NCBI RefSeq assembly: GCF_000260965.1
Contig: NC_017856.1
Span: 1,080,001 to 1,112,000, forward strand
DNA length: 32,000 bases
Direction of reading: 5' to 3'
Source of the DNA: Methylophaga frappieri
Lineage (GTDB): Bacteria; Pseudomonadota; Gammaproteobacteria; Nitrosococcales; Methylophagaceae
Within the stretch, counting starts at the first letter, position 1, and every line of letters starts with the position of its first letter. The translations under genes and the position numbers were made by a program. Below the pieces are notes generated by a model. That model was not told the DNA's origin and searched no databases. It saw only the letters and a list, made by a program, of their open reading frames with translations. Positions 3,922-32,000 of the stretch are shown one piece after another.

Positions 3922-5862
3922 ATGAATGCTACTCGTAAAACATTAAGCGGACTGCTCTTTTCCGCTATCGGAATGCTATCTGCAAATGTCTTGGCAGATA
4001 CCACTGATGCAGAAAAAAACCTGCATAAATTGAACGTGCCAGAGGGCTTTAACGTCGAAATCTATGCAGAAGTCCCCAATGCCAGACAAATGGCATTGGG
4101 CCAATCCACCGGCACGGTCTTTGTTGGCACCCGTAATAAACAGGTCTATGCCGTTGTTGATAAAGACAAAGATCGCAAAGCTGATCAAGTGGTCACCATT
4201 CTCGATGATCTGAAAGTCGGAAATGGCGTAGCGATGTTTGAGGGCAATCTTTACGTTGCAGAGCAAAACCGAATCGCGCGTTATGCGGCGCCAGGTTTTG
4301 ATTTGAGCTTACCTTTTGCTGATATGCGCGAAGTGATTTTTGAAGACTTGCCTGATAAAGGTCACCATGGCTGGCGCTATATTGCTTTTGGTCCTGATGG
4401 CAAGCTCTATGTGACTGTCGGTGCACCGTGTAATATTTGCGACGTGAATGGCTATGAAGCCACGATTATTCGTATGAATCCAGATGGTTCCGATGCCGAA
4501 ATTTATGCTGAAGGGGTGCGTAACTCGGTAGGCATGGATTTTCAACCAGAAACCGGAGCGCTGTTCTTTACCGACAATAATACCGACATGATGGGTGATG
4601 ATAACCCGCCAGGCGAGTTGAATGCCGCTTCACAAATTGGACAGCATTTTGGCTTTCCCTATTACGCTGGCGGTGATGCGCGTCATAAAGATTGGGCAGA
4701 TAAAGCCGTTCCAACCGACGTGACGTTTCCGGTTGCCGAGTTTCAAGCACATACTGCCAATCTCGGTTTCAAGTTTTATACCGGCAAACAGTTTCCTGAT
4801 ACCTATCAAGGCGATGCCATTATTGCCCAGCATGGCTCCTGGAATCGCACCGAGCCCGTAGGTTATGCTCTGGTCAGAGTCACGTTTGATGACAATCATA
4901 ACGTCACTGGTCAAGAAACTTTTATTGACGGCTGGCTAAATGACGGCGAGGCATGGGGACGCCCAACAGACGTGTTACAACTTCCAGATGGTTCGTTATT
5001 GGTGTCAGACGACTACAATGGTGTGATCTACCGCATCAGCTATGGCGAAAACATGGAAAAAGCGGTGGTCAAAACCAGCACCAGCCAGTCCAAGCCATTA
5101 ACTGATCTGGTCATGCCAGAATCGGCCATTGCCGCGCCAAATGGTAATATCTATATCACTGAAATCGGCGAGTTTGGCAAAGCTGGTGATGGCAAAGTGA
5201 CACGGCTAAACGCTGATGGCAGCACGCAAACGTTGGCTGATAACCTCAATGATCCCAAAGGCATCGATTTATTCAACCACCACCTGTATGTTGCCGATGT
5301 CGATCAATTGGTCAAAATCAGTTTGGATGGCAAAACTGAGATACTGGCTCGCGCAGCAGATTTTCCGGGTAAACCCGTCTTTTTAAATGATGTTGAAATT
5401 GATGGCAAAGGTAATATCTTCGTCTCAGATAGCGGCGATGATGATGGCAAACATGCCGGTATTTATCGTGTTACGCCAGAAGGCAAAGTCACTGAAGTGA
5501 TTAGCGATAAATCTGGTATCAAGCGGCCAAATGGTTTGCTAAATAACGGCGTCAATCAGTTACTGGTTGCGGACTTTGGTACGGGTGATTTGTTCACACT
5601 CAACCTTAGCAGCGGCGCTATCAAAAAAGTGAATCAAGGCTTTGGTGGTGCGGATGGCCTGGTTAGAGACAGTAACGGTCAGCTCTATGTCAGTGACTGG
5701 GCGAATGGCAAAGTCTGGCAATTGAGTGAACCCAAAGCCACACCATTACTAATGCGAGATGATTTTGTATCGGCAGCAGATATTGCTTTATCAGCTGATG
5801 GCAAACACTTGTTGGTACCCGACATGAAAGCTGGTGAAATGACTTTTTTACCGCTTCATTAA
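3922..5862 (+). CDS. PQQ-dependent sugar (sorbosone/aldose) dehydrogenase-like beta-propeller fused to a C-terminal NHL/SMP-30-like beta-propeller
   Basis: The ATG at 3922 follows a CAGGAG RBS and gives a signal peptide (MNATRKTLSGLLFSAIGMLSANVLA). The N-terminal half has HHGWRYIAFGPDGKLYVTVGAPCNIC and RNSVGMDF motifs of the soluble PQQ sugar-dehydrogenase family. The C-terminal ~250 aa has repeated G-x-hydrophobic-YV-x-D blades. Confidence 0.8.
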   Translation: MNATRKTLSGLLFSAIGMLSANVLADTTDAEKNLHKLNVPEGFNVEIYAEVPNARQMALGQSTGTVFVGTRNKQVYAVVDKDKDRKADQVVTILDDLKVGNGVAMFEGNLYVAEQNRIARYAAPGFDLSLPFADMREVIFEDLPDKGHHGWRYIAFGPDGKLYVTVGAPCNICDVNGYEATIIRMNPDGSDAEIYAEGVRNSVGMDFQPETGALFFTDNNTDMMGDDNPPGELNAASQIGQHFGFPYYAGGDARHKDWADKAVPTDVTFPVAEFQAHTANLGFKFYTGKQFPDTYQGDAIIAQHGSWNRTEPVGYALVRVTFDDNHNVTGQETFIDGWLNDGEAWGRPTDVLQLPDGSLLVSDDYNGVIYRISYGENMEKAVVKTSTSQSKPLTDLVMPESAIAAPNGNIYITEIGEFGKAGDGKVTRLNADGSTQTLADNLNDPKGIDLFNHHLYVADVDQLVKISLDGKTEILARAADFPGKPVFLNDVEIDGKGNIFVSDSGDDDGKHAGIYRVTPEGKVTEVISDKSGIKRPNGLLNNGVNQLLVADFGTGDLFTLNLSSGAIKKVNQGFGGADGLVRDSNGQLYVSDWANGKVWQLSEPKATPLLMRDDFVSAADIALSADGKHLLVPDMKAGEMTFLPLH

Positions 5863-8955: not shown

Positions 8956-10899
8956 TTAGACGCCAGCGTTGGTCAACGACATTGGTTGACGCATCTGCAG
9001 CTGCGAACAGCTTAAGTTGATGGGCATCCCTTTAACTAATCCACTCGACGCTGCGGTCGATGTCATCTGGCCGACTTCTGACGCGAGAGCATGACGGTGT
9101 TCAACAAACCAGTTATCAAACATTTCAACTTGCTCCGCATCCAGCGCTACTGAGGTGGCACTTGCCACAGTCAGCCACAAGTACAACAGCAGTAAATTAC
9201 TCAAAACCAGAAGCAGACTGAAAGTCCGCCAAAAGGCCAGCGGGTTACGCTCTAACAGTGGTGGCCGCTCTTCATGTAGATAACTCGGGTTCGGTTTTTT
9301 GATATCGGCTTCAAACTCAGACAATGCCTCATAACGCCGTTCTGGGTTCATTGCCACAGTGCGCCGAATCGCTTTATCCACCCAATGTGGAATATCGCCT
9401 TGATACTCACTAAGTGACTGATACTGCAATCGGTTTAGTTGCTGTGGATGGCGGATTTTGGCGTAGGCCTCACCGAAGGGCAACCGATTGCTCAAAAGCT
9501 GATAAACCAATATCCCCAAAGAAAACTGATCGGATTGTGGACTGCCTGGTTCACCCCGCAAATACTCGGGCGCCGAGTAGTGTCTAGTACCAAGCAATGC
9601 TTGTCGCTCCACCGGCGAAACAATATCAGCGATACCGGCAATTTTTGTTGAACCAAAATCGATTATCTTTAACACACCATCATCCGTCATCAAAATATTT
9701 GCTGGCTTAATATCCTGATGCAGCATGTCCAGCCGATGAAAAGCGCGTAACCCGGAAATAATCTGTGGCAATATCTGACGGACTGTCTGTAAACTCAGGC
9801 TGCCCTCATCATCCAGCCACTGCTCCAGTGTTCTGCCCTCAACATACTCGAGAACGTAATACAAAAATCGGCGCGGGCGTTGCTGCTCAATGACACGAAC
9901 CACATGCGCATGATCGATGCGTCGGCCAATCCATTCTTCCAGTTGAAAGCGCTCCAGATAAGCCGGGTCATCTTCAAAGTTAACAGACGGTGTTTTCAAC
10001 ACTACTTTATTGCCGTTATCCGTGTCTATCGCCAAATAGAGTTGACTGGTGGAACTGGCATGCAGCGTTTTAATGACACGGTAGCCATCAAGAATCACAC
10101 CTTCATATAATTCTGGTGGAAATGGCAAGGCAGTAAGGCGGGCAAACGCTTCATCAGCATCCGGCTGGGGCACTTGCGTGACTTCAACCAACTGACAGCT
10201 GAGATTATCATCGCTGCCTCGCGCTAATGCCTGTTGGCAGATATGTTCCGCCAACTCCTGTAGATCGGCTTTCTCTGACAATAAATGCTTTAATTCCGCA
10301 TCGCTCAACCATTCATGCACACCATCTGTCAGCAATACGAAACAATCACCAGCCTCAATTGGTAACGATTTGTAGTCAATATCCAACGCATAATCGACGC
10401 CTAAAGCACGTCCCAGATATGCGCGCTCATCACTAATCCGAATACGGTGATCGGCCGTGAGTTGCTCCAGAGACTGGCCTCGCAACAAGTAAATTCGAGC
10501 ATCGCCAACGTGGAATAGATGCGCAGTACTGGATTTCAGAATAAGCCCGGAAAACGTCGTTGCCCAACCGCGGCTGCTGTCGCGAAAATGCTGGCCCTGG
10601 CCACACAGCCAGACATTAATTGCGGTCAAAACTTTGCCACCAGACTGCTTTACCGACCAGCTATCCGGTGTGCTGAAATAGTCTTCAACAAAACCGGTTA
10701 TCGCCGCGTGGCTGGCCTGCCTGGCACGTTCACTACTACTGATACCATCAGCTAATGCACAAACAATGCCTTTACTTTCCAGCATGACCGGGTTGTCTGG
10801 TACCAGACAACCCAGCGCATCCTGATTTTCTGCTTTCGCACCGGCCAGTGATTGCTGACCGTATCTGACAGCAAGTGCAACCAATTCCTTATGCCTCAA
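8956..10899 (-). CDS. Bifunctional PP2C phosphatase / Ser-Thr protein kinase, C-terminally membrane anchored
   Basis: 647 aa. PP2C motifs: [26 protein letters not shown]. Kinase motifs: [25 protein letters not shown] helix ([17 protein letters not shown]) is followed by a ~75-aa tail. The TTG start overlaps the nasA stop. Confidence 0.85.
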
Positions 10900-12362
10900 T
10901 GAACATCAATCATCTGTACTGTACCATCAGGAAGTACTTCCGCCATTTGGCCACGTGGCTCATCCATGAATTGCACCACAAACAGCGTTACAATTGCGGT
11001 GGCCGCAATAACCCAGAAAAACGTTTGTGCAGAGACCACTGATAGCACGGTCAAGAACAAAACCGCACCGACATTGCCATAAGCCCCAGCCATGCCAGCG
11101 ATCTGCCCAGTTAAACGACGTTGCACAAGCGGGACAACTGCGAAGACGGCGCCTTCACCCGCCTGAACAAGAAACGAACACATCATCGTTGCCAATACCG
11201 CTAATACCAGAAACCACTCCGGCGTAATCAAGCCCATGACAAAGTAGCCAAAGGCTAAACCGCTCAGACAAATAGTCAACGTCCGTTTACGGCCCAGTTT
11301 GTCACTGAAGTAGCCCCCTGTTGGTCGAGAGACCAGATTCATAAACGCAAAACCAGAGGCCAACAAACCCGCCTGAACCGGGCTGATATTAAAGGTATCA
11401 CTGAAAAATAGTGGCAGCATTGAAACCACCGCCAGCTCAGATCCGAATGTAGCCAGATAAGCCAGGTTCAATACGGCAACCTGTTTAAATTTATATTGAT
11501 GAATTTGCGGCACCGGCGTGTGAAAAATGGTCTTATTGACTTGCCAAATATGATAAATCTGATAGGCAAACAGTAACGCCAGCACGACATATACCGCTTG
11601 GGTAATAGGTGCCGATAACAGTGAGACACCGGCTGGCGATAATTTCCAGGCGAGCAACGCCAGCGCACCGTACAACGGCATACTCATGACAATGTACAAA
11701 AAGAAATCCAGTTTACTGGTCACTTCCATCGCACCCGATTTTTTGGGTTTGAAATAAGTTGAGCCTTTCGGCGTGTCCGAGACGCTGTTGTAATAGATAA
11801 ACGCATAGACAAGCGCCATCGCACCGGTGGTCGCCAAAGCGTAGCGCCAACCATTTTCACCACCGAACAACAAGGCTAGTGTCGGTAGGGTCATCGCCGC
11901 CGCGGCAGAGCCAAAATTACCCCAACCACCGTAAATTCCCTCAGCAAGCCCAACCTGTTTTGCCGGGAACCACTCTGAAATCATGCGAATCCCGATAACG
12001 AATCCGGCACCGACAAAACCGAGTAAAAAACGGGCCAGCGCCATTTGTTCAAAACTGTCGGCAATGGCAAAAAAGAAACACAACACACTGGAAATACCCA
12101 ATAACAGGGTGTACATGATTTTGGGGCCGTATTTATCGACTAGCATACCGACGACAATTCGTGCCGGTATGGTGAGCGCGACGTTCAAAATCAACAAGGT
12201 TTTTAACTGTTGATCCGTCAGCCCCAATGCCTCTCGAATCGACACCAGTAATGGCGCGTGATTAAACCAAACAACAAACGTGATGAAAAAAGCGATCCAG
12301 GTGAGGTGTAAAATACGACTGTTACCGCTAAAAGATAAAAGCTTAAGTTTAGATGCTGACAT
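10896..12362 (-). CDS. nasA: MFS nitrate/nitrite transporter (NarK/NasA type)
   Basis: About 488 aa and 12-TM MFS, with NNP-family glycine-rich motifs ([15 protein letters not shown]). The ATG at 12362 lies behind a purine-rich AAAGAGAGAG. The gene sits in a nitrate-assimilation context. Confidence 0.9.
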
Positions 12363-12406
12363 GACTCTCTCTTTCACAGATTTACCAAAATCGGTTTTGT
12401 CACTTA

Positions 12407-13578: not shown

Positions 13579-14820
13579 TCAGAATTTAACCATGCCATAC
13601 AACCAGATTTTTTCGGTATCAACGCGTGAGGCAAACGTCTTATCAGCACGATAATCCGCATATTTGAGACCAATGGTATAGTGACTGGCAATCGTTTTTT
13701 CGAGCAAGACATTCAGCTCATTACCGGCATCAAGACTGGCAAAATCCGTTTCAAAATCATGGTAGACCATCACTAACTTGGCGCCTAAAACTGACCCAGC
13801 CAATGTCACATAGGTATCTTTCAGCCCTTGAACCGGCGTAGTCAGGAATTGATCTGCCCAGCCTTGAAAAGCATGGTTTGTGCCCAGCGGCGTGGTAAAG
13901 CTAAACTGTCCATCACCTTGTTGTACCTCATGCGACAGTTTGACCAACCATCCTTGATATTTACCTCCCAATTCTGCCAGTCCATAGTTTTGTCTGGCCA
14001 TATTGCCACCGCGAAACCCGTCCTGCGAGGCATACTCCAGTGTATAAACCAGCGACAATGACTCTGACAATGGTCTGCTGCCACTGAGACGCACCCCGAG
14101 GGTTTTTGATGAGCGTGACTCAACATCCTGATAGTCCAAAAAATAGCCATATCCCTCCAGTTTGGCCACTGACCATCCTGTGTATTGCAGGTTGATTAAA
14201 TGACCGTGTAAATCAATATTGCCATTTTTTGTGATGCCGCCATCAAAATCCTCACCGTTGATAGTATTGACGTTATGAATATAACCATAATGTAGTGTTG
14301 TGTCTGGCAGACTGGTGTTTTGCAAAGTGAACGCATCAAATGTCTGATGATTTTGTCGCCACAGTACATTTCCCACGAAGCGATGAAACGGGGCGTCACG
14401 GTAAGTGATATTCTGACGACCATATTTAAAGAGCGTCTCCATGGCCTGAAAACTCACATAGCCTTGATTAAGCTCCGTTCCATCTGGATCCGCAATGACT
14501 GAGTAGCCAGTCTTTCCATTGCTGGTACTGTTAAATTGTTCACCACCAATATGACTGACATCTTCCAGTTCCAGATAGGCTGCAAAGCCTTTGAATTGGG
14601 CGGTTTGATACCCTAATGTAGTTCGGAGAGTAAAGGCATCAGCTTGTTCCAGCGTATTATCCTGATCAACCGACTCGTATCTGGCACGCGCTGAAAAATT
14701 GAATTTTCCAGTAGTCAGTGCCTCTAAAAATGTGGTTTCCGCCTGAACTGGCGCGATCAGAAAACTACTGCCTGAGAGAATCAGGGCACCGAATAAATGT
14801 CTCAATAAAGAAGATGACAT
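13579..14820 (-). CDS. Outer-membrane beta-barrel porin (OprD / alginate-export-like), possibly an anion channel
   Basis: The ATG at 14820 lies behind AAGGAA and gives a signal peptide ending PVQA-ETT. It has an ARARYESVDQDN-type N-terminal strand, alternating beta-strand patterns, and a C-terminal ...YGMVKF. Confidence 0.7.
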   Translation of the reverse strand: MSSSLLRHLFGALILSGSSFLIAPVQAETTFLEALTTGKFNFSARARYESVDQDNTLEQADAFTLRTTLGYQTAQFKGFAAYLELEDVSHIGGEQFNSTSNGKTGYSVIADPDGTELNQGYVSFQAMETLFKYGRQNITYRDAPFHRFVGNVLWRQNHQTFDAFTLQNTSLPDTTLHYGYIHNVNTINGEDFDGGITKNGNIDLHGHLINLQYTGWSVAKLEGYGYFLDYQDVESRSSKTLGVRLSGSRPLSESLSLVYTLEYASQDGFRGGNMARQNYGLAELGGKYQGWLVKLSHEVQQGDGQFSFTTPLGTNHAFQGWADQFLTTPVQGLKDTYVTLAGSVLGAKLVMVYHDFETDFASLDAGNELNVLLEKTIASHYTIGLKYADYRADKTFASRVDTEKIWLYGMVKF

Positions 14821-14957
14821 GCGCTTTTCCTTTACATACAAAAAAGCCATGCTTTAACGACTATAAAGCATGGCATCATTACCATTATTTTCCAGCGACT
14901 TTGCTAAAACTTGCGTTGCCAACGACCTTGCTGGCTCTGACCAGGCGTCAGTTCTGT

Positions 14958-23104: not shown

Positions 23105-24135
23105 CCGAAAAAGACCCTTATTTTGAGGCACGCCAGACATCACAAAGCCGAACATCAGCGACCGCACCTGCCGATTTTTTCAAACCTCGTGCTGAACAAC
23201 AAATCGGTTTGCCAGAGTCGGTCGATATGGATGAGGATCTATTCGAACTGCCTGAGCCAGTTGCCGGCGAGACTTCGTATTTCAAGGCCTGGACACTCAG
23301 TCTCGCCAGCGTTTTTTTGGTATGGATTGGTTACGATCTGTATCAATTTATGCAGCAGCTAATCCAGCAGAATCCTATATTAGCCGTCGGTTTTGGCCTG
23401 TTACTGCTTCTTCTGCTCACACTGAGCTTGCATCAAATCTGGATCAGCTGGCGCAACCGCCGGCAACGGAAACGTATCGACAAATTGCGCCATCAAGCTG
23501 AAACCATGCGTGACGATTTCAGCCAGCGTCAGGCCAAACCGTGGTTAGCTGAATTATCTACATTGTATGCGGGCACCCAGCATGCTGCTTCCATACAGAG
23601 AATCCAGACAACATTGCCGGATTATCTTCACGATAGCGAAGTGATAGACACGGTTGACCAGCAATTTTTTCAACAGCTCGACAAACAGGCAATGCGATTG
23701 ATTCAGCAAGAAAGTGTCAACAGTGCAGTATTAGTCGCCGTCAGCCAACTGGCGATTATTGATACCTTACTGGTTGTCTGGAAAACGCTGAAGATGGTGA
23801 ATCGCATTAATCTCATCTATGGTGCCAAGCTAGGCAAACTGGCTCGCTGGCGAATGAATCTGCAAATTTGCAAAGTCGCCCTTGTTTCCTACGGTACTCA
23901 GGCTGGCTTGACCTTAATGGCGGAAAAAACCAGTCTTGGGTTGAGTGGCAAACTGGTTGGCAGTGTTGCCCAAGGAATCGGCGTCGGCTTATATCAGGCG
24001 CGTATTGGGATGAGCGCGATGCAGCAGATAAGGCCGATACCTTTTGCAGAAAACGCATTGCCCAAAAACCGCTTCCTGGCCAATATCGCGCAAAGTTGTC
24101 TCTCTAGGTTACGGCGTCAAGCGCCTGAGGCTTGA
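23101..24135 (+). CDS. ycjF: YcjF-family (UPF0283/DUF697) inner-membrane protein
   Basis: 344 aa with two central TM helices and the usual pairing with ycjX. Confidence 0.8.
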   Translation: MTEKDPYFEARQTSQSRTSATAPADFFKPRAEQQIGLPESVDMDEDLFELPEPVAGETSYFKAWTLSLASVFLVWIGYDLYQFMQQLIQQNPILAVGFGLLLLLLLTLSLHQIWISWRNRRQRKRIDKLRHQAETMRDDFSQRQAKPWLAELSTLYAGTQHAASIQRIQTTLPDYLHDSEVIDTVDQQFFQQLDKQAMRLIQQESVNSAVLVAVSQLAIIDTLLVVWKTLKMVNRINLIYGAKLGKLARWRMNLQICKVALVSYGTQAGLTLMAEKTSLGLSGKLVGSVAQGIGVGLYQARIGMSAMQQIRPIPFAENALPKNRFLANIAQSCLSRLRRQAPEA

Positions 24136-26816
24136 TACAGGCTCGCACCATTTCTGCCAGCGGCTTTAACATCATACAACGCCATATCCGCTTGTTTTAA
24201 ATAATGCGTCATTGCATCGTCGACCGTTGGAATTCCAGCGGTGACACCAATACTTAAGGTTACTTGAACAGCCGTGCCGTCTTCTAATTCTATGGGCTCC
24301 GATACCGATGCGACCAGGTTTTGTGCAACATGTAAGGCAGCATCTGGTGAAGACACCTCATGCAAGACAACCACAAACTCATCGCCTCCCAATCGGGCTA
24401 ACGTGTCGCTTGCCCGCAAAGTGTTGGACATCTTCTCCGCGACCACCTGAATGATCAAATCGCCGGCATCATGGCCATAGTTATCATTAATTGACTTAAA
24501 GTAATCAATATCCACAAACATCAAGGCCAGCACTTGTTTATTGCGCCTTGCCTGTTGAATCGCCATACCAAAATGCTCTTCGTACAAGCGTCGGTTTGGC
24601 AGCCCGGTTAGTGCATCATAAAACGCCATTTTGCGAATATGTGCTTCTTCTTGTTTTCGGGTGGTGATATCTTCAACTTGGGAAACAAAATGTAACACCC
24701 CACCTTGCTCATCATGGACAACAGACACACTGAGCAAAACGTCAATAATTTCGCCCCCCCGACAGAAATAACGCTTTTCAATGTGATAGTGATCTAACTC
24801 TTTATCAAGCAATTTCCTGACAAAATGCTGATCTAAGTCGAGATCCTCAGGATGAGTAATATCCATAAAGGTCAACGCCATCAATTCTGCTTCGGTATAA
24901 CCAAGCATATCGCACAATGCGGGGTTCACCTCCAGCCAGCGGCCTTCAATACTAACCAGTGCCATACCAATCGCTGCCGTATCAAAGGCATTTCGAAACC
25001 GCTCCTCACTTTGACGCAAAGCCAATTCGGTGTCCTTACGCCAGCTGATATCACTGTTTGTCCCAACGGCACGTAATGGCTCGCCATGTTCATCACGTTC
25101 AATCACAATCCCTTTGGCTAAAATCCACTTCCAGCTACCATCACGGCATTTAATACGATGTTCATTCCGATACGCCGGCTGACTGCCATCAAACAAAGCG
25201 GTCAGATCTTTTTGCACTTGAGGCAAGTCATCCGGATGAATGCGGTCTGCCCATTCACTGAAATGCGGGGTAAAATCGTCCGGTGAATAGCCCAGCATCG
25301 TCACCAGTCTTTCTGAATAAATGACACTGTCATCCGTTAACGTCCAATCCCAAACCCCTTCCCCACTCCCTTCAAGTGCAAACTTCCATCGCGCTTCAGT
25401 CTGCTCCAGACGAGATTGGTAAAACCATCTATCTGTAATATCAAAACTGACCCCAACCATACCGGTTGGTTGGCCTGAGTGATTAAATCTCATAACAGCA
25501 TTCAGCTGAATCATGCGTGAGTTGTAGGCATCCAGCTGGAACAGCAATTCAATATTCAAATCAACGCGGTTGTTAATGACATAGTCGATCTCCTGCTCCA
25601 GCCGCGCTCTATCCTGCTCATCAAAAAGGGCGCACCAATCTTGAAATAAGATCTGATGACTTCGGGTACGTTGTAATCCCATCAGCTTTGCCAGATTGCC
25701 ATCCAGCCACATCCTATCTGTCTCAAAATCCCAGTCCCAAATGCCCATTTTGGCGGTTTCGGTTGCCAGCGATAACCGCTGGTTTTGCTCACGAAGTTGC
25801 GCGGTCATATTATTTGCCAGCTTTTCTGCCCGCAACTTACCATTAATCAACAGCCAACTGATGGCCATCAATGCCACAGTAAACAGTAACTCCAATACCA
25901 ACCGAATAATTGGCCAGTTGGTCAGATACTGTGCTCTAAAGGCCATATCGGGTTGGGCAGAAAATTGCCATTGCCGACCGGCAAGCACACTGGTCTCAGT
26001 CAATTGCCAATGATCATCAAAGTCGCCCGTATCAAATAACACATCCCCATTGAGCGGGCTGATATCATTGATTTGTAATCGCGTTAATGAAGGAAAATGC
26101 GCAAGTGTGGCCCGAATAATATCTTCGATGCGAAATACCACATAAACCCAACCGGTATGTTCTCGTTTAGATGCACTGACGGAATCATTGAGTAGACCCA
26201 CATTTTTAAATGTCGGTAGATACATCAACAAACCGGTGACAGACTCACCGGGCAAATCCTGAACCAGTTTAACCCCACCCGACATTGCCGTCGTTAAGGT
26301 ATCGCGTGCTCGCCACATCGCCTCACTTCTCACCGAATTTGAGGCCATGTCATAGCCGAAGGCACGCAAATTTCTCTCTTTAAAAGGTTCGAGATAAATA
26401 ATACTGGAGTATATTTCTCGCTCACCTTCAGGGTAGATTTTGTAATCTGGAAACCCTTGTTTGCGGATCATCGCCTCATGTTCGACGCGCGCTTCTGGTA
26501 GAACCAACTGGCTATATCCCAACCCTAACAATCCGGGGTAAATGGTCTCCAATTGCAGTTTGTCAGCAAACACTTTGAACTCATTACGTGACACATAGTA
26601 ACTTGCTTGAAAAAGCCCTTGAGTCGCCCTCAGCATCTGATCATAGGAGTTGACTTTGTCTGAGATAACCAAGGTAACTTGCTGAAAGATAGTATCAAAA
26701 CGACTTTTGAGCGCGGTTTCAGCTTGAGATTGATTCTGATGGAATTGATTGATGCTGAAAAAGACACCCATGACGAGAATCACTAACGGGATGAATTTGA
26801 ACGCGCGTTCTCTCAT
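24117..26816 (-). CDS. Sensor diguanylate cyclase: TM-CHASE-TM-PAS x3-GGDEF
   Basis: 899 aa. CHASE hallmarks: YLEPFKERNLRAFGYDM, ARDT. There are three PAS/PAC repeats. The active site is RLGGDEF with an RASD I-site. No EAL domain is present. Confidence 0.9.
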   Translation of the reverse strand: MRERAFKFIPLVILVMGVFFSINQFHQNQSQAETALKSRFDTIFQQVTLVISDKVNSYDQMLRATQGLFQASYYVSRNEFKVFADKLQLETIYPGLLGLGYSQLVLPEARVEHEAMIRKQGFPDYKIYPEGEREIYSSIIYLEPFKERNLRAFGYDMASNSVRSEAMWRARDTLTTAMSGGVKLVQDLPGESVTGLLMYLPTFKNVGLLNDSVSASKREHTGWVYVVFRIEDIIRATLAHFPSLTRLQINDISPLNGDVLFDTGDFDDHWQLTETSVLAGRQWQFSAQPDMAFRAQYLTNWPIIRLVLELLFTVALMAISWLLINGKLRAEKLANNMTAQLREQNQRLSLATETAKMGIWDWDFETDRMWLDGNLAKLMGLQRTRSHQILFQDWCALFDEQDRARLEQEIDYVINNRVDLNIELLFQLDAYNSRMIQLNAVMRFNHSGQPTGMVGVSFDITDRWFYQSRLEQTEARWKFALEGSGEGVWDWTLTDDSVIYSERLVTMLGYSPDDFTPHFSEWADRIHPDDLPQVQKDLTALFDGSQPAYRNEHRIKCRDGSWKWILAKGIVIERDEHGEPLRAVGTNSDISWRKDTELALRQSEERFRNAFDTAAIGMALVSIEGRWLEVNPALCDMLGYTEAELMALTFMDITHPEDLDLDQHFVRKLLDKELDHYHIEKRYFCRGGEIIDVLLSVSVVHDEQGGVLHFVSQVEDITTRKQEEAHIRKMAFYDALTGLPNRRLYEEHFGMAIQQARRNKQVLALMFVDIDYFKSINDNYGHDAGDLIIQVVAEKMSNTLRASDTLARLGGDEFVVVLHEVSSPDAALHVAQNLVASVSEPIELEDGTAVQVTLSIGVTAGIPTVDDAMTHYLKQADMALYDVKAAGRNGASLYQASGA

Positions 26817-27037
26817 GACAGACGATAACTCGGTTTATTTTTCACATCGGGCCTTAAAAACAGTTTCGTCATAGTCGTCAGATGACGCTGAAGACTTACA
26901 CTCGGTGTAAGCATTGTTATGGCAGAAGTGGCGATGGGTCAAGCTTGGTCTCGCATATTGAGAAGTAACACGCATTTTTGCCACCTGCGTGAACAAGTCA
27001 GTTTCAAACAAAACGCATCAATAATGAATAACTGACC

Positions 27038-28024
27038 TTATTGTGCTTCCATTTTGATATTGAATAGCTGCGTGACAACTTGAGGGGTAATAACGCTAGT
27101 CATCATCGTCATCATGATGCTGTTCCCCCCGGGATGCGTTGATGCCACATCAACCTGCAGATAGGGTTGTGGGCTATCTATGGAAACCGCCAGCTTATCC
27201 GCGACCGTTTGTTTAAGATCGGCTGGTAAATAGCGCCAGGTGTCGACTGATTGCTGCGCCTGCTGCTTTAACTGTGTGCGAAAATCCGGTTCCGTCATAT
27301 TTTCACGTGCCGCCGCGGAACGCACTAATGGTTCCCATGCGCCTTGATCCTGAAGCGTCAACTCAGAGTGGATCAAATTGAGCTGTGTCCACGCCAGTGC
27401 CAGTGCTGCGTGATTTTCCGGTTTCCCCAGTAAAATCAATTGTTGCCGCAAGTCGGGCACATTACTGAAATGGCCTTTCCAGCGAAAATCAGCCATAGAA
27501 CGGCTACGACTATCGGCAGGATGATGAAACTGGCCTTCCATCTCCAACTGCAATTGCGATCGCGCTGCCAGATAATTCACCGTCAGTGTTTGCTGGTGTC
27601 CGATACGGCCGCTATTAATGCCCAGTGCTTGCAGGTAATAATTCAGTACATTTAACCGGTTTTGCTGATCAGTTAGTCGAATCAGTGTTACCACCGCATC
27701 ATCAATATCGACCTGAAATGATTCGACAAAATCGCGCTCTTTATTTAACTCAATATTTTTTAGGGTAATAGCTTCAATCGCATGGGCGCGTCCGGCTTTA
27801 TCACGAATACGAATATTGTCGACCTCGACACTGCGCGCGCTTGGTGAGGTTTTGACTTCGCCGACTTCAACCTGAATACCAGACTGATTCAGCTTGGTGA
27901 CCAGCGCTTCAACCATCCCCCTAGCCACATCATCGGCACGTTGCGCAGCCCAAGCATGAACACTGAAAACGCCCACCATGAGTAAACTAGCGGCAACCAG
28001 AAAACGCGAACGAAACAAGGACAC
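27038..28024 (-). CDS. Secreted hypothetical protein (third gene of the unknown cluster)
   Basis: 328 aa. The GTG start lies behind GGAG. The signal peptide ends HAWA-AQ. I recognise no family. Confidence 0.6.
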   Translation of the reverse strand: MSLFRSRFLVAASLLMVGVFSVHAWAAQRADDVARGMVEALVTKLNQSGIQVEVGEVKTSPSARSVEVDNIRIRDKAGRAHAIEAITLKNIELNKERDFVESFQVDIDDAVVTLIRLTDQQNRLNVLNYYLQALGINSGRIGHQQTLTVNYLAARSQLQLEMEGQFHHPADSRSRSMADFRWKGHFSNVPDLRQQLILLGKPENHAALALAWTQLNLIHSELTLQDQGAWEPLVRSAAARENMTEPDFRTQLKQQAQQSVDTWRYLPADLKQTVADKLAVSIDSPQPYLQVDVASTHPGGNSIMMTMMTSVITPQVVTQLFNIKMEAQ

Positions 28025-28148
28025 AGACGAACTCCGAAAATTAAATTTGGCATAGTATGACGCAGTCCGTTAAAACTGCGAAAAAATCTTATAAAAACCG
28101 ATATTTAGACGCCACTTTTCCAGTGGTGTTCCCACTACTGACCATACC

Positions 28149-30818
28149 TTATTGGCGGAATTGTTCCAGCAACTGCAAACGCTGTGGCTCAGGCAAAGCC
28201 CGGAAGGTTGCAATATTTGCCTCGCGTATGGCGTCAGGCAAATTTTTGGCTTTCAGTAACGCATCCAGTTCAGCCGCCTGTGCGGCCAGTGTCTTGTCAC
28301 CAGCGGTTTCTGATGCCGGCGATGGACAGGTTTGCCACGCTGTTTGGCATTGCGACTGACATGCAGTTTGTGCACTTTCCTGCTGATGCACAGCACAATC
28401 ACAACGACAATGAGGCGTCGTAACCGCTGATGTTGACTCAGTCTGATTGCCACATCCTGACTTAAAGCCCATCGCACTCAGCTCCGCGTCCGTTATCCCG
28501 GCAGCACATAAATCGGCAGGTGGTGCCGACATATTTTCAATAATCGCCTGAATGGGGGCGGCACCAAAAGGCGTTGTTTTCAGGGTATTTTGTATCAACG
28601 CCTGTCGCGTTGATTGTTCATCCACCTGAAAGTCATCATCACCACGCCACGGACTGGGTATCAAAAATTCCCCGCGAATTTGGGTTGCCACGAGTGGTGC
28701 TTCATCTGGCCCGGGGTTTGCTTCATCAATCAAATCGGCTTCGAATGTTCCGCTTAGTTGGGTCGGGCTGTAGGTTTTAATATGCACGCGCCCATTAGGT
28801 GGCTGATGATAGGTTCGATTGCCATCACGCACTGTCGGACCATAAGCTCGATATTGATAGTGGCTATCGTTAGCTTTGGCAACGATCAACTCGGCATTAT
28901 CAAATTGCCCACTAAAACCATAATCAATTTTTGGCACAGCAATCCGGATTTTTCTGCCATCAATCGCCGCTATTTCCTGATCCAGAATCGCGCTGACTTG
29001 GCGGATTTCATCAAGATTATTAGGGTTTACGCCAAGAAAACTTTGCGGCGACTCAAAGCTATCTGCGGCAAGCATAGCGCGTTGTGCCGGAAACCCGACT
29101 ACCTGCAGATCAATCAACAATTGTGCATCACACAAATTCAGCTGTTTTTGGGTCAGGTTGCACTCGGTTGGATCAGCATAGTTTTTCCGGTTCGCTTTGC
29201 CGACCGGTGACAACTGCATCGCTGGATCACGTAAGGCATCTGCCTGTTTCTTTTCCGCCAATTTTTTACGCGTGGGTTTGGTTGGGTTCGGTTTGCCCGA
29301 GGAGGCAGGCGGTGTCATTTGTTGCGGCCCATAAATGCCCGGCAACACGGGGCCTACCTCGCCCCCACCCAGCGTAAATCGATAATTACCCGCCATAATC
29401 TGAAAGTCTGGCGTGACAGACTGACTGCGTTCCGGCTCACTAGCCATATTGGCCACAACAAACGTCATTCGCGTATTTTTCAAGGCGGGAAAGGTCCAAG
29501 AGGCAACGACTTGAACCGCATAATCTTCGCTACGACTCGAAAGAATCGGGGCGCTTAGAAATGAACCATCCTGCATACCAATACGCAACTGCTGCATGGC
29601 CTTGACATCAGTCCCTACCAATTCAATTTTAATCGCCGACTGATTGGTGTTCGGATCAACCATGATAAAAAAACATGCTGCCCCGTTTTCCTTGATAACA
29701 ATTTGATGTTGCAGTGAATCAAAGTCACTGACATGCCCCACAAATGGACATCGGCCAAATAGCCGTTTCAACCACCGCGGCTCCCACTCTGTCGGGTCTG
29801 GAATAAAACTTAACTGCCCGACACGCGTATGAAGAATTTCTGCGAAGGTCGTGACAAAACCTGAGTAAGCTGTTGCCAGATTAGTCCGAATATGCGGATA
29901 CGTTCGCATCCAGCGATTCAGCCATTTGATTTCATTGTCTGGGGTGAGTTTGTCTGTATAAGGGGTATTTAACAGATCGGCAAGATAACGATAATCTTCA
30001 TCCGCTGGCGCTGCCCCCGGATGTACTATGCCTTGACGCGAAGCAGCCGACACCTCTGCCAAATAACGCCAGAAAGAGCTCGTCAAATACCCACCTAACG
30101 CATCTTCTGGCTTGTTTAGCGGCGTGTTGTAGCCGCGAGCACCATACAATTTTATCGTCTGAATATTACGACGCTCCAACTTAAACTGTGTCTTTCTCAG
30201 TTTATTGCTGGCAAAGTAAGCCACCGCGTCCGCTGTTCCCTCACTAATCCAATCGCTTAACCCGCATTGAGTATGAGAATCTGAAGCTCTTTGCACAGCA
30301 TGGAACAATTCATGAGCCAGCGTCTGATAAGCCGCATCGGACACCTGCTTGCCTTTATATCGGTTAAAGGTATTGATATTCAACACTTTCCGCGAGGTAA
30401 CAGGCATCGCACATGGCTTGCCAGAGCTGTACCAGCCACCCGGACCATTTTCAGTAGGATAAACGTAGACTCGGATAACTTTTCTGCCATTTTTGCCGAT
30501 CACCACTGAGTCAATCGCCCCTTTGGCGACCGGGTCAGCAAAACCCAACTTTGCGTATAACTTGGCAGTCTGACCTAAAAATTCTTCAATATCCTGAATC
30601 ATTTCATCAGATAAGGCAGGCTGAATCGACGCGCTTTCTTCAGCGATCCAGTCATGTTCATCTACCGGCGCATCACCATACAGTTCAAACTCAGTCACTT
30701 GCCAGGTTTGACCATAAGCCGGTGCTGGCAACACTGCTTGCCACAGCATTAAAACAAACCCTAGTGTCAGAACCACGTAGGGGTGAACGCTTCGCAAGCA
30801 GCTTGCTTGAGTCGTCAT
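28149..30818 (-). CDS. Large secreted HExxH protein (MA-clan / Peptidase_MA_2-like gluzincin domain) with a Pro/Lys linker and Cys-rich C-terminus
   Basis: 889 aa from the ATG at 30818, which forms an ATGA overlap with the upstream gene. The signal peptide ends PAYG-Q. HELFHAVQ is followed 19 aa later by WISEGTADAV, a candidate third zinc ligand Glu. Confidence 0.7.
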   Translation of the reverse strand: MTTQASCLRSVHPYVVLTLGFVLMLWQAVLPAPAYGQTWQVTEFELYGDAPVDEHDWIAEESASIQPALSDEMIQDIEEFLGQTAKLYAKLGFADPVAKGAIDSVVIGKNGRKVIRVYVYPTENGPGGWYSSGKPCAMPVTSRKVLNINTFNRYKGKQVSDAAYQTLAHELFHAVQRASDSHTQCGLSDWISEGTADAVAYFASNKLRKTQFKLERRNIQTIKLYGARGYNTPLNKPEDALGGYLTSSFWRYLAEVSAASRQGIVHPGAAPADEDYRYLADLLNTPYTDKLTPDNEIKWLNRWMRTYPHIRTNLATAYSGFVTTFAEILHTRVGQLSFIPDPTEWEPRWLKRLFGRCPFVGHVSDFDSLQHQIVIKENGAACFFIMVDPNTNQSAIKIELVGTDVKAMQQLRIGMQDGSFLSAPILSSRSEDYAVQVVASWTFPALKNTRMTFVVANMASEPERSQSVTPDFQIMAGNYRFTLGGGEVGPVLPGIYGPQQMTPPASSGKPNPTKPTRKKLAEKKQADALRDPAMQLSPVGKANRKNYADPTECNLTQKQLNLCDAQLLIDLQVVGFPAQRAMLAADSFESPQSFLGVNPNNLDEIRQVSAILDQEIAAIDGRKIRIAVPKIDYGFSGQFDNAELIVAKANDSHYQYRAYGPTVRDGNRTYHQPPNGRVHIKTYSPTQLSGTFEADLIDEANPGPDEAPLVATQIRGEFLIPSPWRGDDDFQVDEQSTRQALIQNTLKTTPFGAAPIQAIIENMSAPPADLCAAGITDAELSAMGFKSGCGNQTESTSAVTTPHCRCDCAVHQQESAQTACQSQCQTAWQTCPSPASETAGDKTLAAQAAELDALLKAKNLPDAIREANIATFRALPEPQRLQLLEQFRQ

Positions 30819-31564
30819 TGCAACGGTGCTGGCAAGCAATCAGCGTAATCTGACGGCAAATCACCTACCCGTACCAGAGGGTTGGCAATACCCTCAATAT
30901 CATGCGTAAAAGCAACCGCCTGCTGTTGCGGGTTTAATTCAAACGCCACCGCAAAATCGGTAAAGCTATCTGAATAGGTGAACACGGTATCGGTAGCACT
31001 GCGCATTCGCCATGGGGCAAGATCAGCCCATATCGGTGACATAGCTAGCAACCCATCACACGTTTTGCCAACAAATATACTTTTGGCTGGCGGGTCTCCG
31101 GCTTTGGCGTATAAGCCTGAAAATCGATCCAAGTCTGTCCGAGCCTTGCCTTTTTTCTGTTGATTAATCGCCATTGCCTGCTGCGTATCGTCCGCATTGG
31201 CTTGCGTTTCTTGTTTGGTAACAGCCTCATTAATCGCCGCCGAGTGATCCTGATAATCAATCATATTTTCCAACTGCTGTTGATTAAGCTGATCTTGTAA
31301 GACTTGACCATTGATATTGCCAAACACCGAAATAGCCGCCATATCGCCGGTCTGTGCTACCTCCTGCATCAAGACCATCAATTCGGTGGGGTTTGCGTCA
31401 TATTCCGCTTTGTCGGCTGGCCAGATTTGCTCAAACTTTGCGCTGACCGCCTCAATGCCACCCGTGGTGTAAGCAGCGCGAAGTGTCTCTGCCAAAGACA
31501 CTTTATCAGCAGCAATAACCGCCAAGCTCAGACAGATTAAGACACTCCCGATTAAAAGCTTCAT
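30815..31564 (-). CDS. Secreted hypothetical protein (first gene of the unknown cluster)
   Basis: 249 aa from the ATG at 31564, which lies behind a strong GGGAGGTGGGGAGA RBS. The signal peptide is MKLLIGSVLICLSLAVIAA. A Gln-rich linker precedes a C-terminal beta-rich domain. Confidence 0.6.
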   Translation of the reverse strand: MKLLIGSVLICLSLAVIAADKVSLAETLRAAYTTGGIEAVSAKFEQIWPADKAEYDANPTELMVLMQEVAQTGDMAAISVFGNINGQVLQDQLNQQQLENMIDYQDHSAAINEAVTKQETQANADDTQQAMAINQQKKGKARTDLDRFSGLYAKAGDPPAKSIFVGKTCDGLLAMSPIWADLAPWRMRSATDTVFTYSDSFTDFAVAFELNPQQQAVAFTHDIEGIANPLVRVGDLPSDYADCLPAPLQ

Positions 31565-31804
31565 TCTCCCCACCTCCCTGGTTAACCAGTACTGATTGAC
31601 TATGCTTTTCACGCTCAGCGGATGATCACGTTTGCCTGGCAACGAGCATGAAGTTGCAAACAAACTCGTAGAGTGCTTAAGTACATCCTAACCTAAGCAA
31701 CAATGACGATGCCACAAAATAAGATATTTTTAACTTTTTATTCAGTCAGTTACCTTTAACTCTTAAGCCAACGACTCTCACCAGTTTATTAAAGGATCCC
31801 CCTC

Positions 31805-32000
31805 ATGAAACCTTTCTACATTTATACTGGATTCACTTTAGCGCTATTGCTCACAGCTTGTGGCACAGATGAGGACACCACTGCCAACTCAACAAGCAAC
31901 ACGCCGCTGATTCAGTGGTGTATGGAAACAGAAAGCCAAGCTATTTGTGATTGTGCGGATGCGTCGCTGCGAGCGGAAGCCATAAAAAAAGATTATGAAA
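31805..32000 (+). CDS. 5' end of a lipoprotein gene (truncated by the window edge)
   Basis: The ATG lies behind AAGGA. Product: MKPFYIYTGFTLALLLTAC, with a lipobox. The frame is open to the end of the window. Confidence 0.45.
   Translation, partial: MKPFYIYTGFTLALLLTACGTDEDTTANSTSNTPLIQWCMETESQAICDCADASLRAEAIKKDYE

Follow-up and report, generated by a model that had tools for sequence, protein, structure and literature searches.

A two-gene unit for a predicted exported gluzincin-type metallopeptidase and its putative partner in Methylophaga frappieri

In the genome of Methylophaga frappieri (assembly GCF_000260965.1, contig NC_017856.1), three adjacent genes whose products carry signal-peptide-like N-termini, here called genes 1, 2 and 3, raise the question of which of them belong together and what kind of enzyme is encoded by the largest, gene 2, with its HExxH motif. 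They occupy positions 27,038 to 31,564 of the analysed stretch of 32,000 nucleotides (positions 1,080,001 to 1,112,000 of the contig), which as a whole is referred to as the window and provides the coordinates used throughout. An initial annotation had grouped all three as one cluster, possibly a system of protease, chaperone or inhibitor, and accessory factor in the cell envelope. The computational follow-up described here favours a smaller unit, to which a probability of roughly 0.6 is assigned: a two-gene operon of genes 1 and 2, in which gene 2 would encode an exported gluzincin and gene 1 its exported partner, gene 3 being unrelated.

Gene calls and the catalytic domain of gene 2

All three genes lie co-directionally on the minus strand, as do the features within them that are located below. 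What the initial annotation had read from the locus, namely co-directional genes with signal-peptide-like N-termini, a strong ribosome-binding site, an ATGA overlap and a gap of 124 nt, was confirmed from the window sequence. Gene 1 (30815..31564, 249 aa) encodes an apparently exported partner protein, homologues of which (29-55% identity) are found directly upstream of gene 2 relatives; the Shine-Dalgarno sequence GGGAGG (31573..31578) is positioned 8 nt 5' of its ATG at 31564. The TGA of gene 1 and the ATG of gene 2 overlap by 4 nt as ATGA. Gene 2 (28149..30818, 889 aa) is assigned from its reading frame, its homologues and a structural model as a predicted exported, multi-domain zinc metallopeptidase of the gluzincin type that is covered by neither a Pfam nor an NCBIfam model. 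Gene 3 (27038..28024, 328 aa), separated from gene 2 by the 124-nt gap, starts with GTG and would encode an exported protein of the Methylophaga lineage, which homologues and synteny identify as a neighbour outside the conserved module. Since each of the three open reading frames (ORFs) has homologues, all of them are real genes.

Signal peptides were assigned by inspection and by conservation in homologues. The N-termini of genes 1, 2 and 3 each combine a charged n-region with a 12-residue hydrophobic core (mean Kyte-Doolittle value of 2.5-3.0) and an AxA-like site (VIA-A, AYG-Q and AWA-A, with the hyphen at the putative cleavage point), and the hydrophobic N-termini are kept in the homologues of genes 1 and 2. 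In gene 1, the signal peptide would comprise aa 1-18 (MKLLIGSVLICLSLAVIA, followed by A; 31511..31564), having a core score of 2.99 and a hydrophobic N-terminus retained in 10 homologues; in gene 2, it is recognised by its hydrophobic core and would extend over about aa 1-36 (ending in PAPAYG before QTWQVTEFE; 30711..30818). Because these N-termini are kept, and because the number of cysteines of gene 2 outside the signal peptide is even (14), gene 2 is predicted to be exported. Database gene calls start later, giving a gene 2 product of 866 aa from M24 (window 30750) and a gene 1 product of 236 aa from a TTG at codon 14 (window 31525). With these starts, gene 2 would lose its signal peptide and gene 1 would keep a truncated one. 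The longer starts are favoured since the 4-nt overlap recurs in three other loci (L001, L002 and L107) and the N-termini are conserved.

Structure prediction with AlphaFold2 on an alignment of 49 sequences gave a model of gene 2 with a predicted local distance difference test score (pLDDT) of 87.3 and a predicted template modelling score of 0.82. Its catalytic domain (aa 37-355; 29754..30710), supported by Foldseek matches and by a weak but significant homology to the NCBIfam model NF045524, consists of a beta-sheet subdomain and a helical subdomain, in which helix 161-178 carries the HExxH motif and helix 189-208 carries E193, followed by a helical bundle. The HELFH motif (aa 169-173; 30300..30314) provides H169, E170 and H173 as predicted zinc-binding and catalytic residues, and E193 of the sequence WISEGTADAV (30240..30242), 20 residues past H173, is the predicted third zinc ligand. 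In thermolysin, the same His-to-Glu ligand spacing (H146-E166) is likewise 20 residues. A candidate transition-state-stabilising tyrosine, Y244 (30087..30089), is located in a Y-TSSFWRYLAE motif 74 residues past E170. Across the 49 sequences, which share 21-51% identity, H169, E170, H173, W190, E193, A198, G226, R228, Y244, S248 and W250 are invariant, whereas D197, which completes an ExxxD motif (E193...D197) in the gene 2 of the window, varies within the family.

When compared to the Protein Data Bank (PDB) with Foldseek, the model retrieved the M30 peptidase lugdulysin first (E of 5e-5 and of 5e-4; 270-300 columns aligned at a probability of 1.00), followed by the M4 enzymes Gentlyase, thermolysin, Bacillus cereus neutral protease and vibriolysin with probabilities of 0.75-0.99; taken together, the gluzincin fold matches of families M30 and M4 range in E from 5e-5 to 0.17 at probabilities of 0.75-1.0. 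Gene 2 thus combines the features by which gluzincins are defined, i.e. HExxH on a helix, a glutamate ligand on the next helix and a thermolysin-like fold of two subdomains. Fold and invariant catalytic residues agree in supporting the assignment of gene 2 as a gluzincin-type HExxH...E protein, as had been proposed by the initial annotation. In the homologues, the AxA-like site abuts a conserved W(Q/E)(V/I)TxFE strand. Since a signal-peptidase-like site is thus placed directly before the first conserved strand, the gene 2 family lacks a propeptide.

The family is real and fairly large. A word-indexed search returned 73 gene 2 relatives, none with a recorded Pfam domain and with "hypothetical protein" as the sole name given. 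Scanning of GTDB species genomes yielded 75 loci, distributed over Burkholderiaceae, Acidobacteriota, Woeseiaceae, Lysobacterales, Arenimonas, Hyphomonas, Nitrospirales, Halieaceae, Paraglaciecola and others. In an exhaustive profile search, 968 representative clusters, counted at 50% identity, passed E<=1e-3, and 391 also passed E<=1e-30. Most of the clusters are full-length proteins of 800-1000 aa. Several genomes carry two to four gene 2 paralogues, with four copies in one alphaproteobacterial metagenome-assembled genome (MAG). Additionally, a longer paralogue of 1144 aa is found in a Burkholderiaceae MAG (L004, 8782-12216, plus strand), in tandem directly past a gene 1-gene 2 pair.

No entry of the searched model libraries claims the family. 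Scans of the three window proteins, 49 gene 2 family members and 10 gene 1 family members with Pfam, NCBIfam and PADLOC gave nothing above cut-off, and a role in anti-phage defence was rejected. Among the checks proposed along with the initial annotation, structure prediction and Foldseek returned the gluzincin fold for gene 2, and no Pfam or NCBIfam model passed. The suggested resemblance to Peptidase_MA_2 (PF13485) did not hold, as the window protein had no match even at E<=1 and the 49 members had none at E<=0.1. Peptidase_M30 likewise gave no match at E<=1 for the window protein nor at E<=0.1 for the 49 members, and gene 2 and all 49 members were without a match to the Peptidase_M4 and M4_C models or to an FTP or PepSY propeptide. 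Searches of PDB sequences produced no meaningful match for full-length gene 2, for its catalytic domain alone, for the gene 1 profile or for gene 3; lugdulysin itself was not retrieved with gene 2 by profile or single-sequence searches of the PDB. Also, Foldseek of gene 2 against viral structures gave nothing, and tblastn of gene 2 against plasmids gave no match.

Only two sequence models display significant similarity to the gene 2 family, and both score far below their curated cut-offs. The MXAN_6640 HExxH domain (NF045524) matches gene 2 over aa 72-259 with 36.4 bits (E 4.7e-9; cut-off of 140 bits) and is matched by 42 of the 49 members at E<=0.01 (best E 3.8e-13). The flagellinolysin model NF033876 is matched by 40 of the 49 around HExxH...E (best E 5e-7), at 22 bits compared to a cut-off of 205. 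Gene 2 is therefore a remote homologue of the MXAN_6640 family rather than a member of it. MXAN_6640 itself is uncharacterised, and a literature search turned up no papers on it. Flagellinolysin is an experimentally active gluzincin of its own family, distant from M9, M2 and M4 (PMC5595980); it has flagellin domains, whereas gene 2 has none.

Among enzymes of known structure, lugdulysin/hyicolysin (MEROPS M30; PDB 7bb8 and 7bb9) is the best structural match to the catalytic domain, and both proteins have HExxH with a downstream glutamate. The two residues mutated in lugdulysin E242Q/Y315F are 73 positions apart, compared to 74 for E170 and Y244 of gene 2, and the two pairs may be equivalent. 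At the same time, identity amounts to 15% and the template modelling score (TM-score) to 0.38-0.42, with no sequence-level match of gene 2 to PDB chains or to the Pfam models of M30, M4 and M9. Unlike lugdulysin, gene 2 has no propeptide, and it is extended by about 530 residues that make up two beta domains, a linker and a cysteine hairpin; it also has a coupled partner gene. The literature found on lugdulysin cites the enzyme in passing, and none of it is devoted to it. Enzymes of family M4 (thermolysin, Gentlyase, vibriolysin MCP-02 and B. cereus neutral protease) share with gene 2 the gluzincin fold, the 20-residue spacing from the second histidine to the glutamate and ExxxD; in contrast to them, gene 2 matches neither Peptidase_M4 or M4_C nor an FTP or PepSY propeptide, its D197 is variable within the family and its C-terminal architecture differs. 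The catalytic domain hence falls within a known clan, yet outside M30, M4, Peptidase_MA_2, MXAN_6640 and flagellinolysin. Neither the overall architecture nor the invariant C-terminal six-cysteine motif nor the coupled partner has been described in the searched libraries.

Gene 1 and its pairing with gene 2

Gene 2 relatives of 33-52% identity form a closer clade, in which the neighbourhood of the gene is uniform. Each of the 12 loci whose upstream DNA is readable (the window, L001, L002, L004, L006, L007, L082, L083, L088, L090, L094 and L096) has a gene 1 homologue (29-55% identity) immediately upstream of gene 2, often again with a 4-nt overlap. A thirteenth locus, L103, has a gene 2 relative of 36% identity without gene 1 upstream; instead, a convergent gene downstream of it bears the N-terminal module of gene 1 (E 4e-19). 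This gene (L103, 5614-7335, minus strand) encodes an exported protein of 573 aa with the gene 1 helical module at aa 15-122: its first approximately 120 residues correspond to the signal peptide and helical module of gene 1, and the remaining C-terminal part of about 440 aa is unrelated and without a Pfam or NCBIfam match. Judging from these sequences, the helical module thus seems to be mobile as a unit while keeping its link to gene 2. Overall, a neighbouring gene carries the gene 1 N-terminal module in all closer-clade loci with readable flanks (13/13), and in an all-against-all clustering of neighbours genes 1 and 2 were the only ones to recur. These observations support genes 1 and 2 as an evolutionarily conserved, tightly coupled pair, and the coupling deduced in the initial annotation from the ATGA overlap is borne out across the closer clade. 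A fused gene 1-gene 2 protein was sought among 215 retrieved proteins and not found. In locus L091, a stretch of 57 residues matching gene 2 aa 67-123 is all that follows a gene 1 homologue (4776-4943), with no further gene 2 similarity in about 3.7 kb downstream; this locus may represent a decayed gene 1-gene 2 pair.

Gene 1 is arranged in the order of signal peptide, four-helix module, charged Q/E/A-rich spacer and a beta domain of about 110 aa. The N-terminal module (aa 20-95; 31280..31507), modelled by AlphaFold2 as four helices at a pLDDT of 83-92, is the portion of gene 1 whose link to gene 2 is retained. The C-terminal beta domain (aa 140-249; 30818..31147), recognised by conservation and by sub-threshold profile and fold matches, is possibly of the DUF3471/lipocalin-like type; it contains invariant C169 and C243 and the motif RFxGxY...CDGxL...W.D..W.RSA..VF.Y.D...F...D..G.

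From these elements, the following working model can be drawn. Gene 2 would be a Sec-exported, disulfide-rich zinc metalloendopeptidase, the mature N-terminus of which starts at the thermolysin-like catalytic domain. Zinc would be held by H169, H173 and E193, with E170 serving as general base and Y244 probably stabilising the transition state. Behind the catalytic domain, the two beta-rich domains most likely serve to bind substrate or the envelope, and they would be accompanied by a C-terminal hairpin stapled by cysteines. Proteins or peptides outside the cell or in the periplasm are the most likely substrates of the enzyme. Translation of gene 1 would be coupled to that of gene 2, and its product would be exported to where gene 2 is found; there it most likely binds gene 2 via its helical module and acts as a holder or inhibitor, or else as a targeting adaptor; docking through this module is proposed because it is the part still linked to gene 2 in L103. 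Gene 1 would thereby stand in for the propeptide that gene 2 lacks.

A working analogy for gene 1 is offered by CpaA and CpaB of Acinetobacter, a secreted zinc protease and the adjacently encoded partner needed for its stability and secretion, which blocks the active site in the manner of a zymogen segment (PMC7542363). As in that system, genes 1 and 2 place a predicted secreted zinc metalloprotease beside a small partner acting in the periplasm, and the adjacency of protease and partner is conserved in a CpaA/CpaB-like manner (13/13 closer-clade loci), yet gene 1 is also found without gene 2. Differences are evident as well: CpaA is a glycoprotease grouped with the metzincins and CpaB is anchored to the membrane by an N-terminal transmembrane domain (PMC7542363), whereas gene 2 is a predicted gluzincin and gene 1 appears to have a cleavable signal peptide. 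Gene 1 and CpaB are likened here by gene arrangement. Gene 1 and gene 2 may interact, with gene 1 acting on gene 2, and gene 1 may be a holder, an inhibitor or an adaptor.

Several observations weigh against the reading of genes 1 and 2 as a protease with its dedicated partner. On the enzyme side, the TM-scores of the fold matches are low (0.36-0.46 relative to the target), and the zinc binding and proteolysis ascribed to gene 2 are predictions from sequence, fold and synteny. Concerning the pairing, the 3-6 kb flanking gene 2 relatives of <=29% identity, which are equally devoid of a propeptide, contain no gene 1 in either direction in the loci examined. A search for a diverged gene 1 beside these distant-clade genes yielded upstream ORFs that were unrelated or antisense artefacts. 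Because distant relatives are found without gene 1 nearby, it is not a general requirement of the enzyme. Conversely, gene 2 is missing beside gene 1 relatives in about nine of those metagenome loci that offer at least about 750 nt of downstream sequence, and also in L105 (48% identity); solitary and paired gene 1 relatives interleave in a neighbour-joining tree. As for the C-terminal domain of gene 1, its AlphaFold2 model from a 5-sequence alignment is poor (pLDDT of about 31-73), and DUF3471 (PF11954) was detected in two of seven such domains at E 0.0027 and 0.072, i.e. with 18.5 and 13.9 bits compared to a cut-off of 29.3; both alignments run in consistent register over profile positions 7-89 of 103. 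Finally, gene 3 may be co-transcribed with gene 2 in this genome, because the spacer between them shows no terminator: promoter and terminator scans and folding of this spacer gave nothing above shuffled expectation.

The main rival, tentative and on balance unlikely, holds that gene 1 serves several exported hydrolases in a general way, as an adaptor or substrate-binding protein that delivers ligands or peptides or tethers enzymes instead of blocking an active site; its helical and lipocalin-like modules would be of a kind that is usually attached to serine hydrolases and here forms a protein of its own. This reading draws on the contexts of solitary gene 1 relatives, which are encoded directly upstream, on the same strand, of a secreted Peptidase_S9/PD40 gene (L086, 620-3406, 7-nt gap), of a GDSL-like hydrolase gene (L087, 1006-2543) and of a TIR-FGE-sulfatase-DLH fusion gene (L092, 325-3943). 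A lone homologue in L105 (397-4142) is found near esterase, tannase and carboxylesterase genes; there, gene 1 is divergent from a BufA1 / MbnB_TglH_ChrH / HvfC_N / DoxX set, which we take to resemble bufferin-type clusters of ribosomally synthesised and post-translationally modified peptides. The joining of the N-terminal module to a different C-terminal domain in L103 points in the same direction, as do the sub-threshold DUF3471 matches and the top fold match of the gene 1 C-terminal domain, SurE. SurE is a hydrolase of the penicillin-binding protein (PBP) type with a C-terminal lipocalin-like domain. However, these contexts are few and heterogeneous, and some of the genes concerned (RHS, nar genes, POT transporter) are convergent or unrelated; neither DUF3471 nor SurE reaches significance, the SurE match (PDB 6ksv) having an E of about 1 over approximately 100 columns at a root-mean-square deviation of 3.6-5 A with a low-confidence model. 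The C-terminal domain of gene 1 may thus resemble DUF3471 and the lipocalin-like C-terminal domains of PBP-type serine hydrolases, with scores below cut-off; in SurE the lipocalin-like domain is fused to the serine hydrolase, whereas that of gene 1 resides on a free-standing protein paired with a metalloprotease. Of the initial suggestion that the C-terminal part of gene 1 is lipocalin-like, a plausible, if unproven, resemblance is what stands. Against a general adaptor, pairing in 13/13 closer-clade loci and translational coupling speak for a specific partnership.

A bolder version of the protease-partner reading can also be formulated, and in its full form it is doubtful: genes 1 and 2 would constitute a new two-component secreted protease system, in which a propeptide-less gluzincin of a new family at MEROPS level, marked by a unique invariant C-terminal cysteine hairpin, is served by a free-standing partner that acts as a prodomain in trans (in latency, folding or targeting) and docks by its helical module; the partner family would also service S9 peptidases and GDSL enzymes and so represent escorts of periplasmic hydrolases in general, a class not recognised before. 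The propeptide-less distant members examined, which have no gene 1 nearby, and the solitary occurrence of gene 1 speak against a strict trans-prodomain role.

Non-catalytic domains of gene 2

About 530 of the 889 residues of gene 2 belong to non-catalytic domains, and the last approximately 650 aa resemble no known sequence in Pfam, NCBIfam and PDB sequence searches, as had been remarked in the initial annotation. The catalytic domain is followed by a first beta-sandwich domain (aa 356-481; 29376..29753), with model strands spanning 359-481 at a pLDDT >90, and by a disordered Pro/Lys-rich linker (aa 482-516; 29271..29375), which is gappy and poorly conserved in the alignment and falls to a pLDDT <50 at 486-488 and 493-508. 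A second domain (aa 517-733; 28620..29270), defined by model and conservation, is of mixed alpha/beta and beta-rich character and displays the motifs PxIDYGFTG, GxVTIxEY and ISGxF; a profile search of PDB sequences with aa 515-733 (22-sequence profile) gave no meaningful match. The region of aa 734-889 is modelled as helical and bears the six-cysteine motif C-x-C-x-C-x11-C-x3-C-x6-C (CRCDC...C...C......C; aa 804-831; 28326..28409). Its cysteines C804, C806, C808, C820, C824 and C831 are all invariant in the 49 sequences, and the region is modelled as a pair of helices (808-815 and 818-828). In many members this motif forms the C-terminal end. The three-helix tail that follows in gene 2 (aa 832-889; 28152..28325; model helices 844-888) is present in part of the family only, being absent from about 18 of the 49 aligned members, and many profile matches stop near position 817.

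The large share of non-catalytic residues favours a further alternative, which is nevertheless improbable, namely that gene 2 is no general protease and acts as a specialised hydrolase (on peptidoglycan stem peptides, lipoproteins or glycopeptides) or as a binding protein on a gluzincin scaffold. Beta-sandwich matches in Foldseek include the lysozyme inhibitor PliG, the toxin module C-CPE and the collagen-binding domain of ColG, and a PG_binding_1 protein is encoded just upstream of the pair in L001. Yet these fold matches are generic and weak (E 0.006-0.1) and may concern either of the two beta domains of gene 2, and besides genes 1 and 2 no neighbour recurs across the closer-clade loci. Moreover, the invariance of all catalytic residues over deep divergence argues for catalysis and against a pseudoenzyme, and the occurrence of paralogues (the tandem pair in L004 and the four copies in one alphaproteobacterial MAG) fits nutritional secreted proteases.

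Gene 3, flanking genes and implications

In contrast to gene 2, gene 3 has a narrow distribution. Its search among 5.8 billion proteins listed 13, including that of the window itself, with the other 12 at 56-60% identity, and all relatives bearing a source name are from Methylophaga. Three Methylophaga loci (L079, L080 and L081) share the block gene 3 - C39_2/DUF6627 - CHASE-PAS-GGDEF - YcjF/YcjX - MarR - SnoaL, and genes 1 and 2 are absent from all three. Upstream of gene 3, pgsA is found in L079 and an MCP gene in L081; the contig of L080 ends 393 nt upstream. DNA identity of the window to these loci is about 67% across the shared genes, with no match over genes 1 and 2. Conversely, tblastn detected no gene 3 homologue in 78 loci, nearly all of them with gene 2 relatives, or in 20 loci derived from gene 1. 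Because Methylophaga loci keep gene 3 without genes 1 and 2, and gene 3 is absent from the loci of the latter, it is a lineage-specific neighbour and not part of the conserved module. Gene 3 would have come to be downstream of the pair because the pair lies upstream of it in this genome only. A three-gene envelope system of protease, chaperone or inhibitor and accessory factor, as initially envisaged and possibly tied to the CHASE-GGDEF sensor, can draw on the co-directional genes, on the exported appearance of all three products and on a 124-nt gap without clear terminator that may allow co-transcription here, but is very improbable, given that gene 3 was limited to Methylophaga among named proteins (13 listed), persists without genes 1 and 2 in L079, L080 and L081 and was never met with a gene 1 or gene 2 relative outside the window (78 + 20 loci). 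A lack of co-occurrence outside this genome had been named along with the initial annotation as grounds for refutation, and for gene 3 it applies.

The CHASE-PAS-GGDEF gene (24117-26816) does adjoin gene 3 (27038-28024), as had been pointed out. Since the shared gene 3 block of L079-L081 contains it without genes 1 and 2, this adjacency is older than, and independent of, the pair; a functional link of the pair to cyclic di-GMP (c-di-GMP) signalling was accordingly rejected, the adjacency having been inherited along with the synteny block of gene 3. The Methylophaga relatives (L079, 8993-10377; L081, 8992-10377) carry Peptidase_C39_2-like and DUF6627 genes on the opposite strand between gene 3 and the CHASE-GGDEF gene, where the window has a spacer of 221 nt only (26817-27037), so this gene pair was lost from the window or never gained.

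The remaining genes of the window comprise YcjX/YcjF, MarR, a SnoaL-like gene, a nitrate/nitrite assimilation cluster and c-di-GMP genes. Neither Rfam families nor tRNAs were detected when the window was scanned for them. Divergent from gene 1, a lipoprotein-like gene (MKPFYIYTGFTLALLLTAC, followed by GTDED; 31805-32000, plus strand) runs past the window end and has no counterpart in the Methylophaga loci L079-L081. Between the genes of an ANTAR regulator and the assimilatory nitrate reductase, an ORF of 423 aa (13579-14850, minus strand) has no Pfam or NCBIfam match at E<=1e-3, which is unexpected inside a well-annotated nitrate assimilation cluster. A gene for a PP2C phosphatase fused to a Ser/Thr kinase (647 aa) shares 4 nt with the end of a major facilitator superfamily (MFS) transporter gene (8956-12377, minus strand), at a site just downstream of the genes for nitrate/nitrite assimilation; this arrangement suggests phospho-regulation of the transporter.

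If the reading of genes 1 and 2 as an exported gluzincin with its partner is true, a sizeable family of exported zinc proteases exists outside any Pfam or NCBIfam model in the searched libraries, the members of which mostly derive from metagenomes and MAGs of Proteobacteria, Acidobacteriota, Nitrospirales (Nitrospirota) and Gemmatimonadota. Bacteria of this kind are credited with breaking down proteinaceous matter in the environment. No new category of biology is implied: gene 2 is expected to use the catalytic chemistry of known gluzincins, and the three genes together do not form a conserved unit. The pair would also make it possible to test what becomes of a thermolysin-like enzyme after export when it has no propeptide, for which the six-cysteine C-terminal motif and the helical module of gene 1 are concrete experimental handles.

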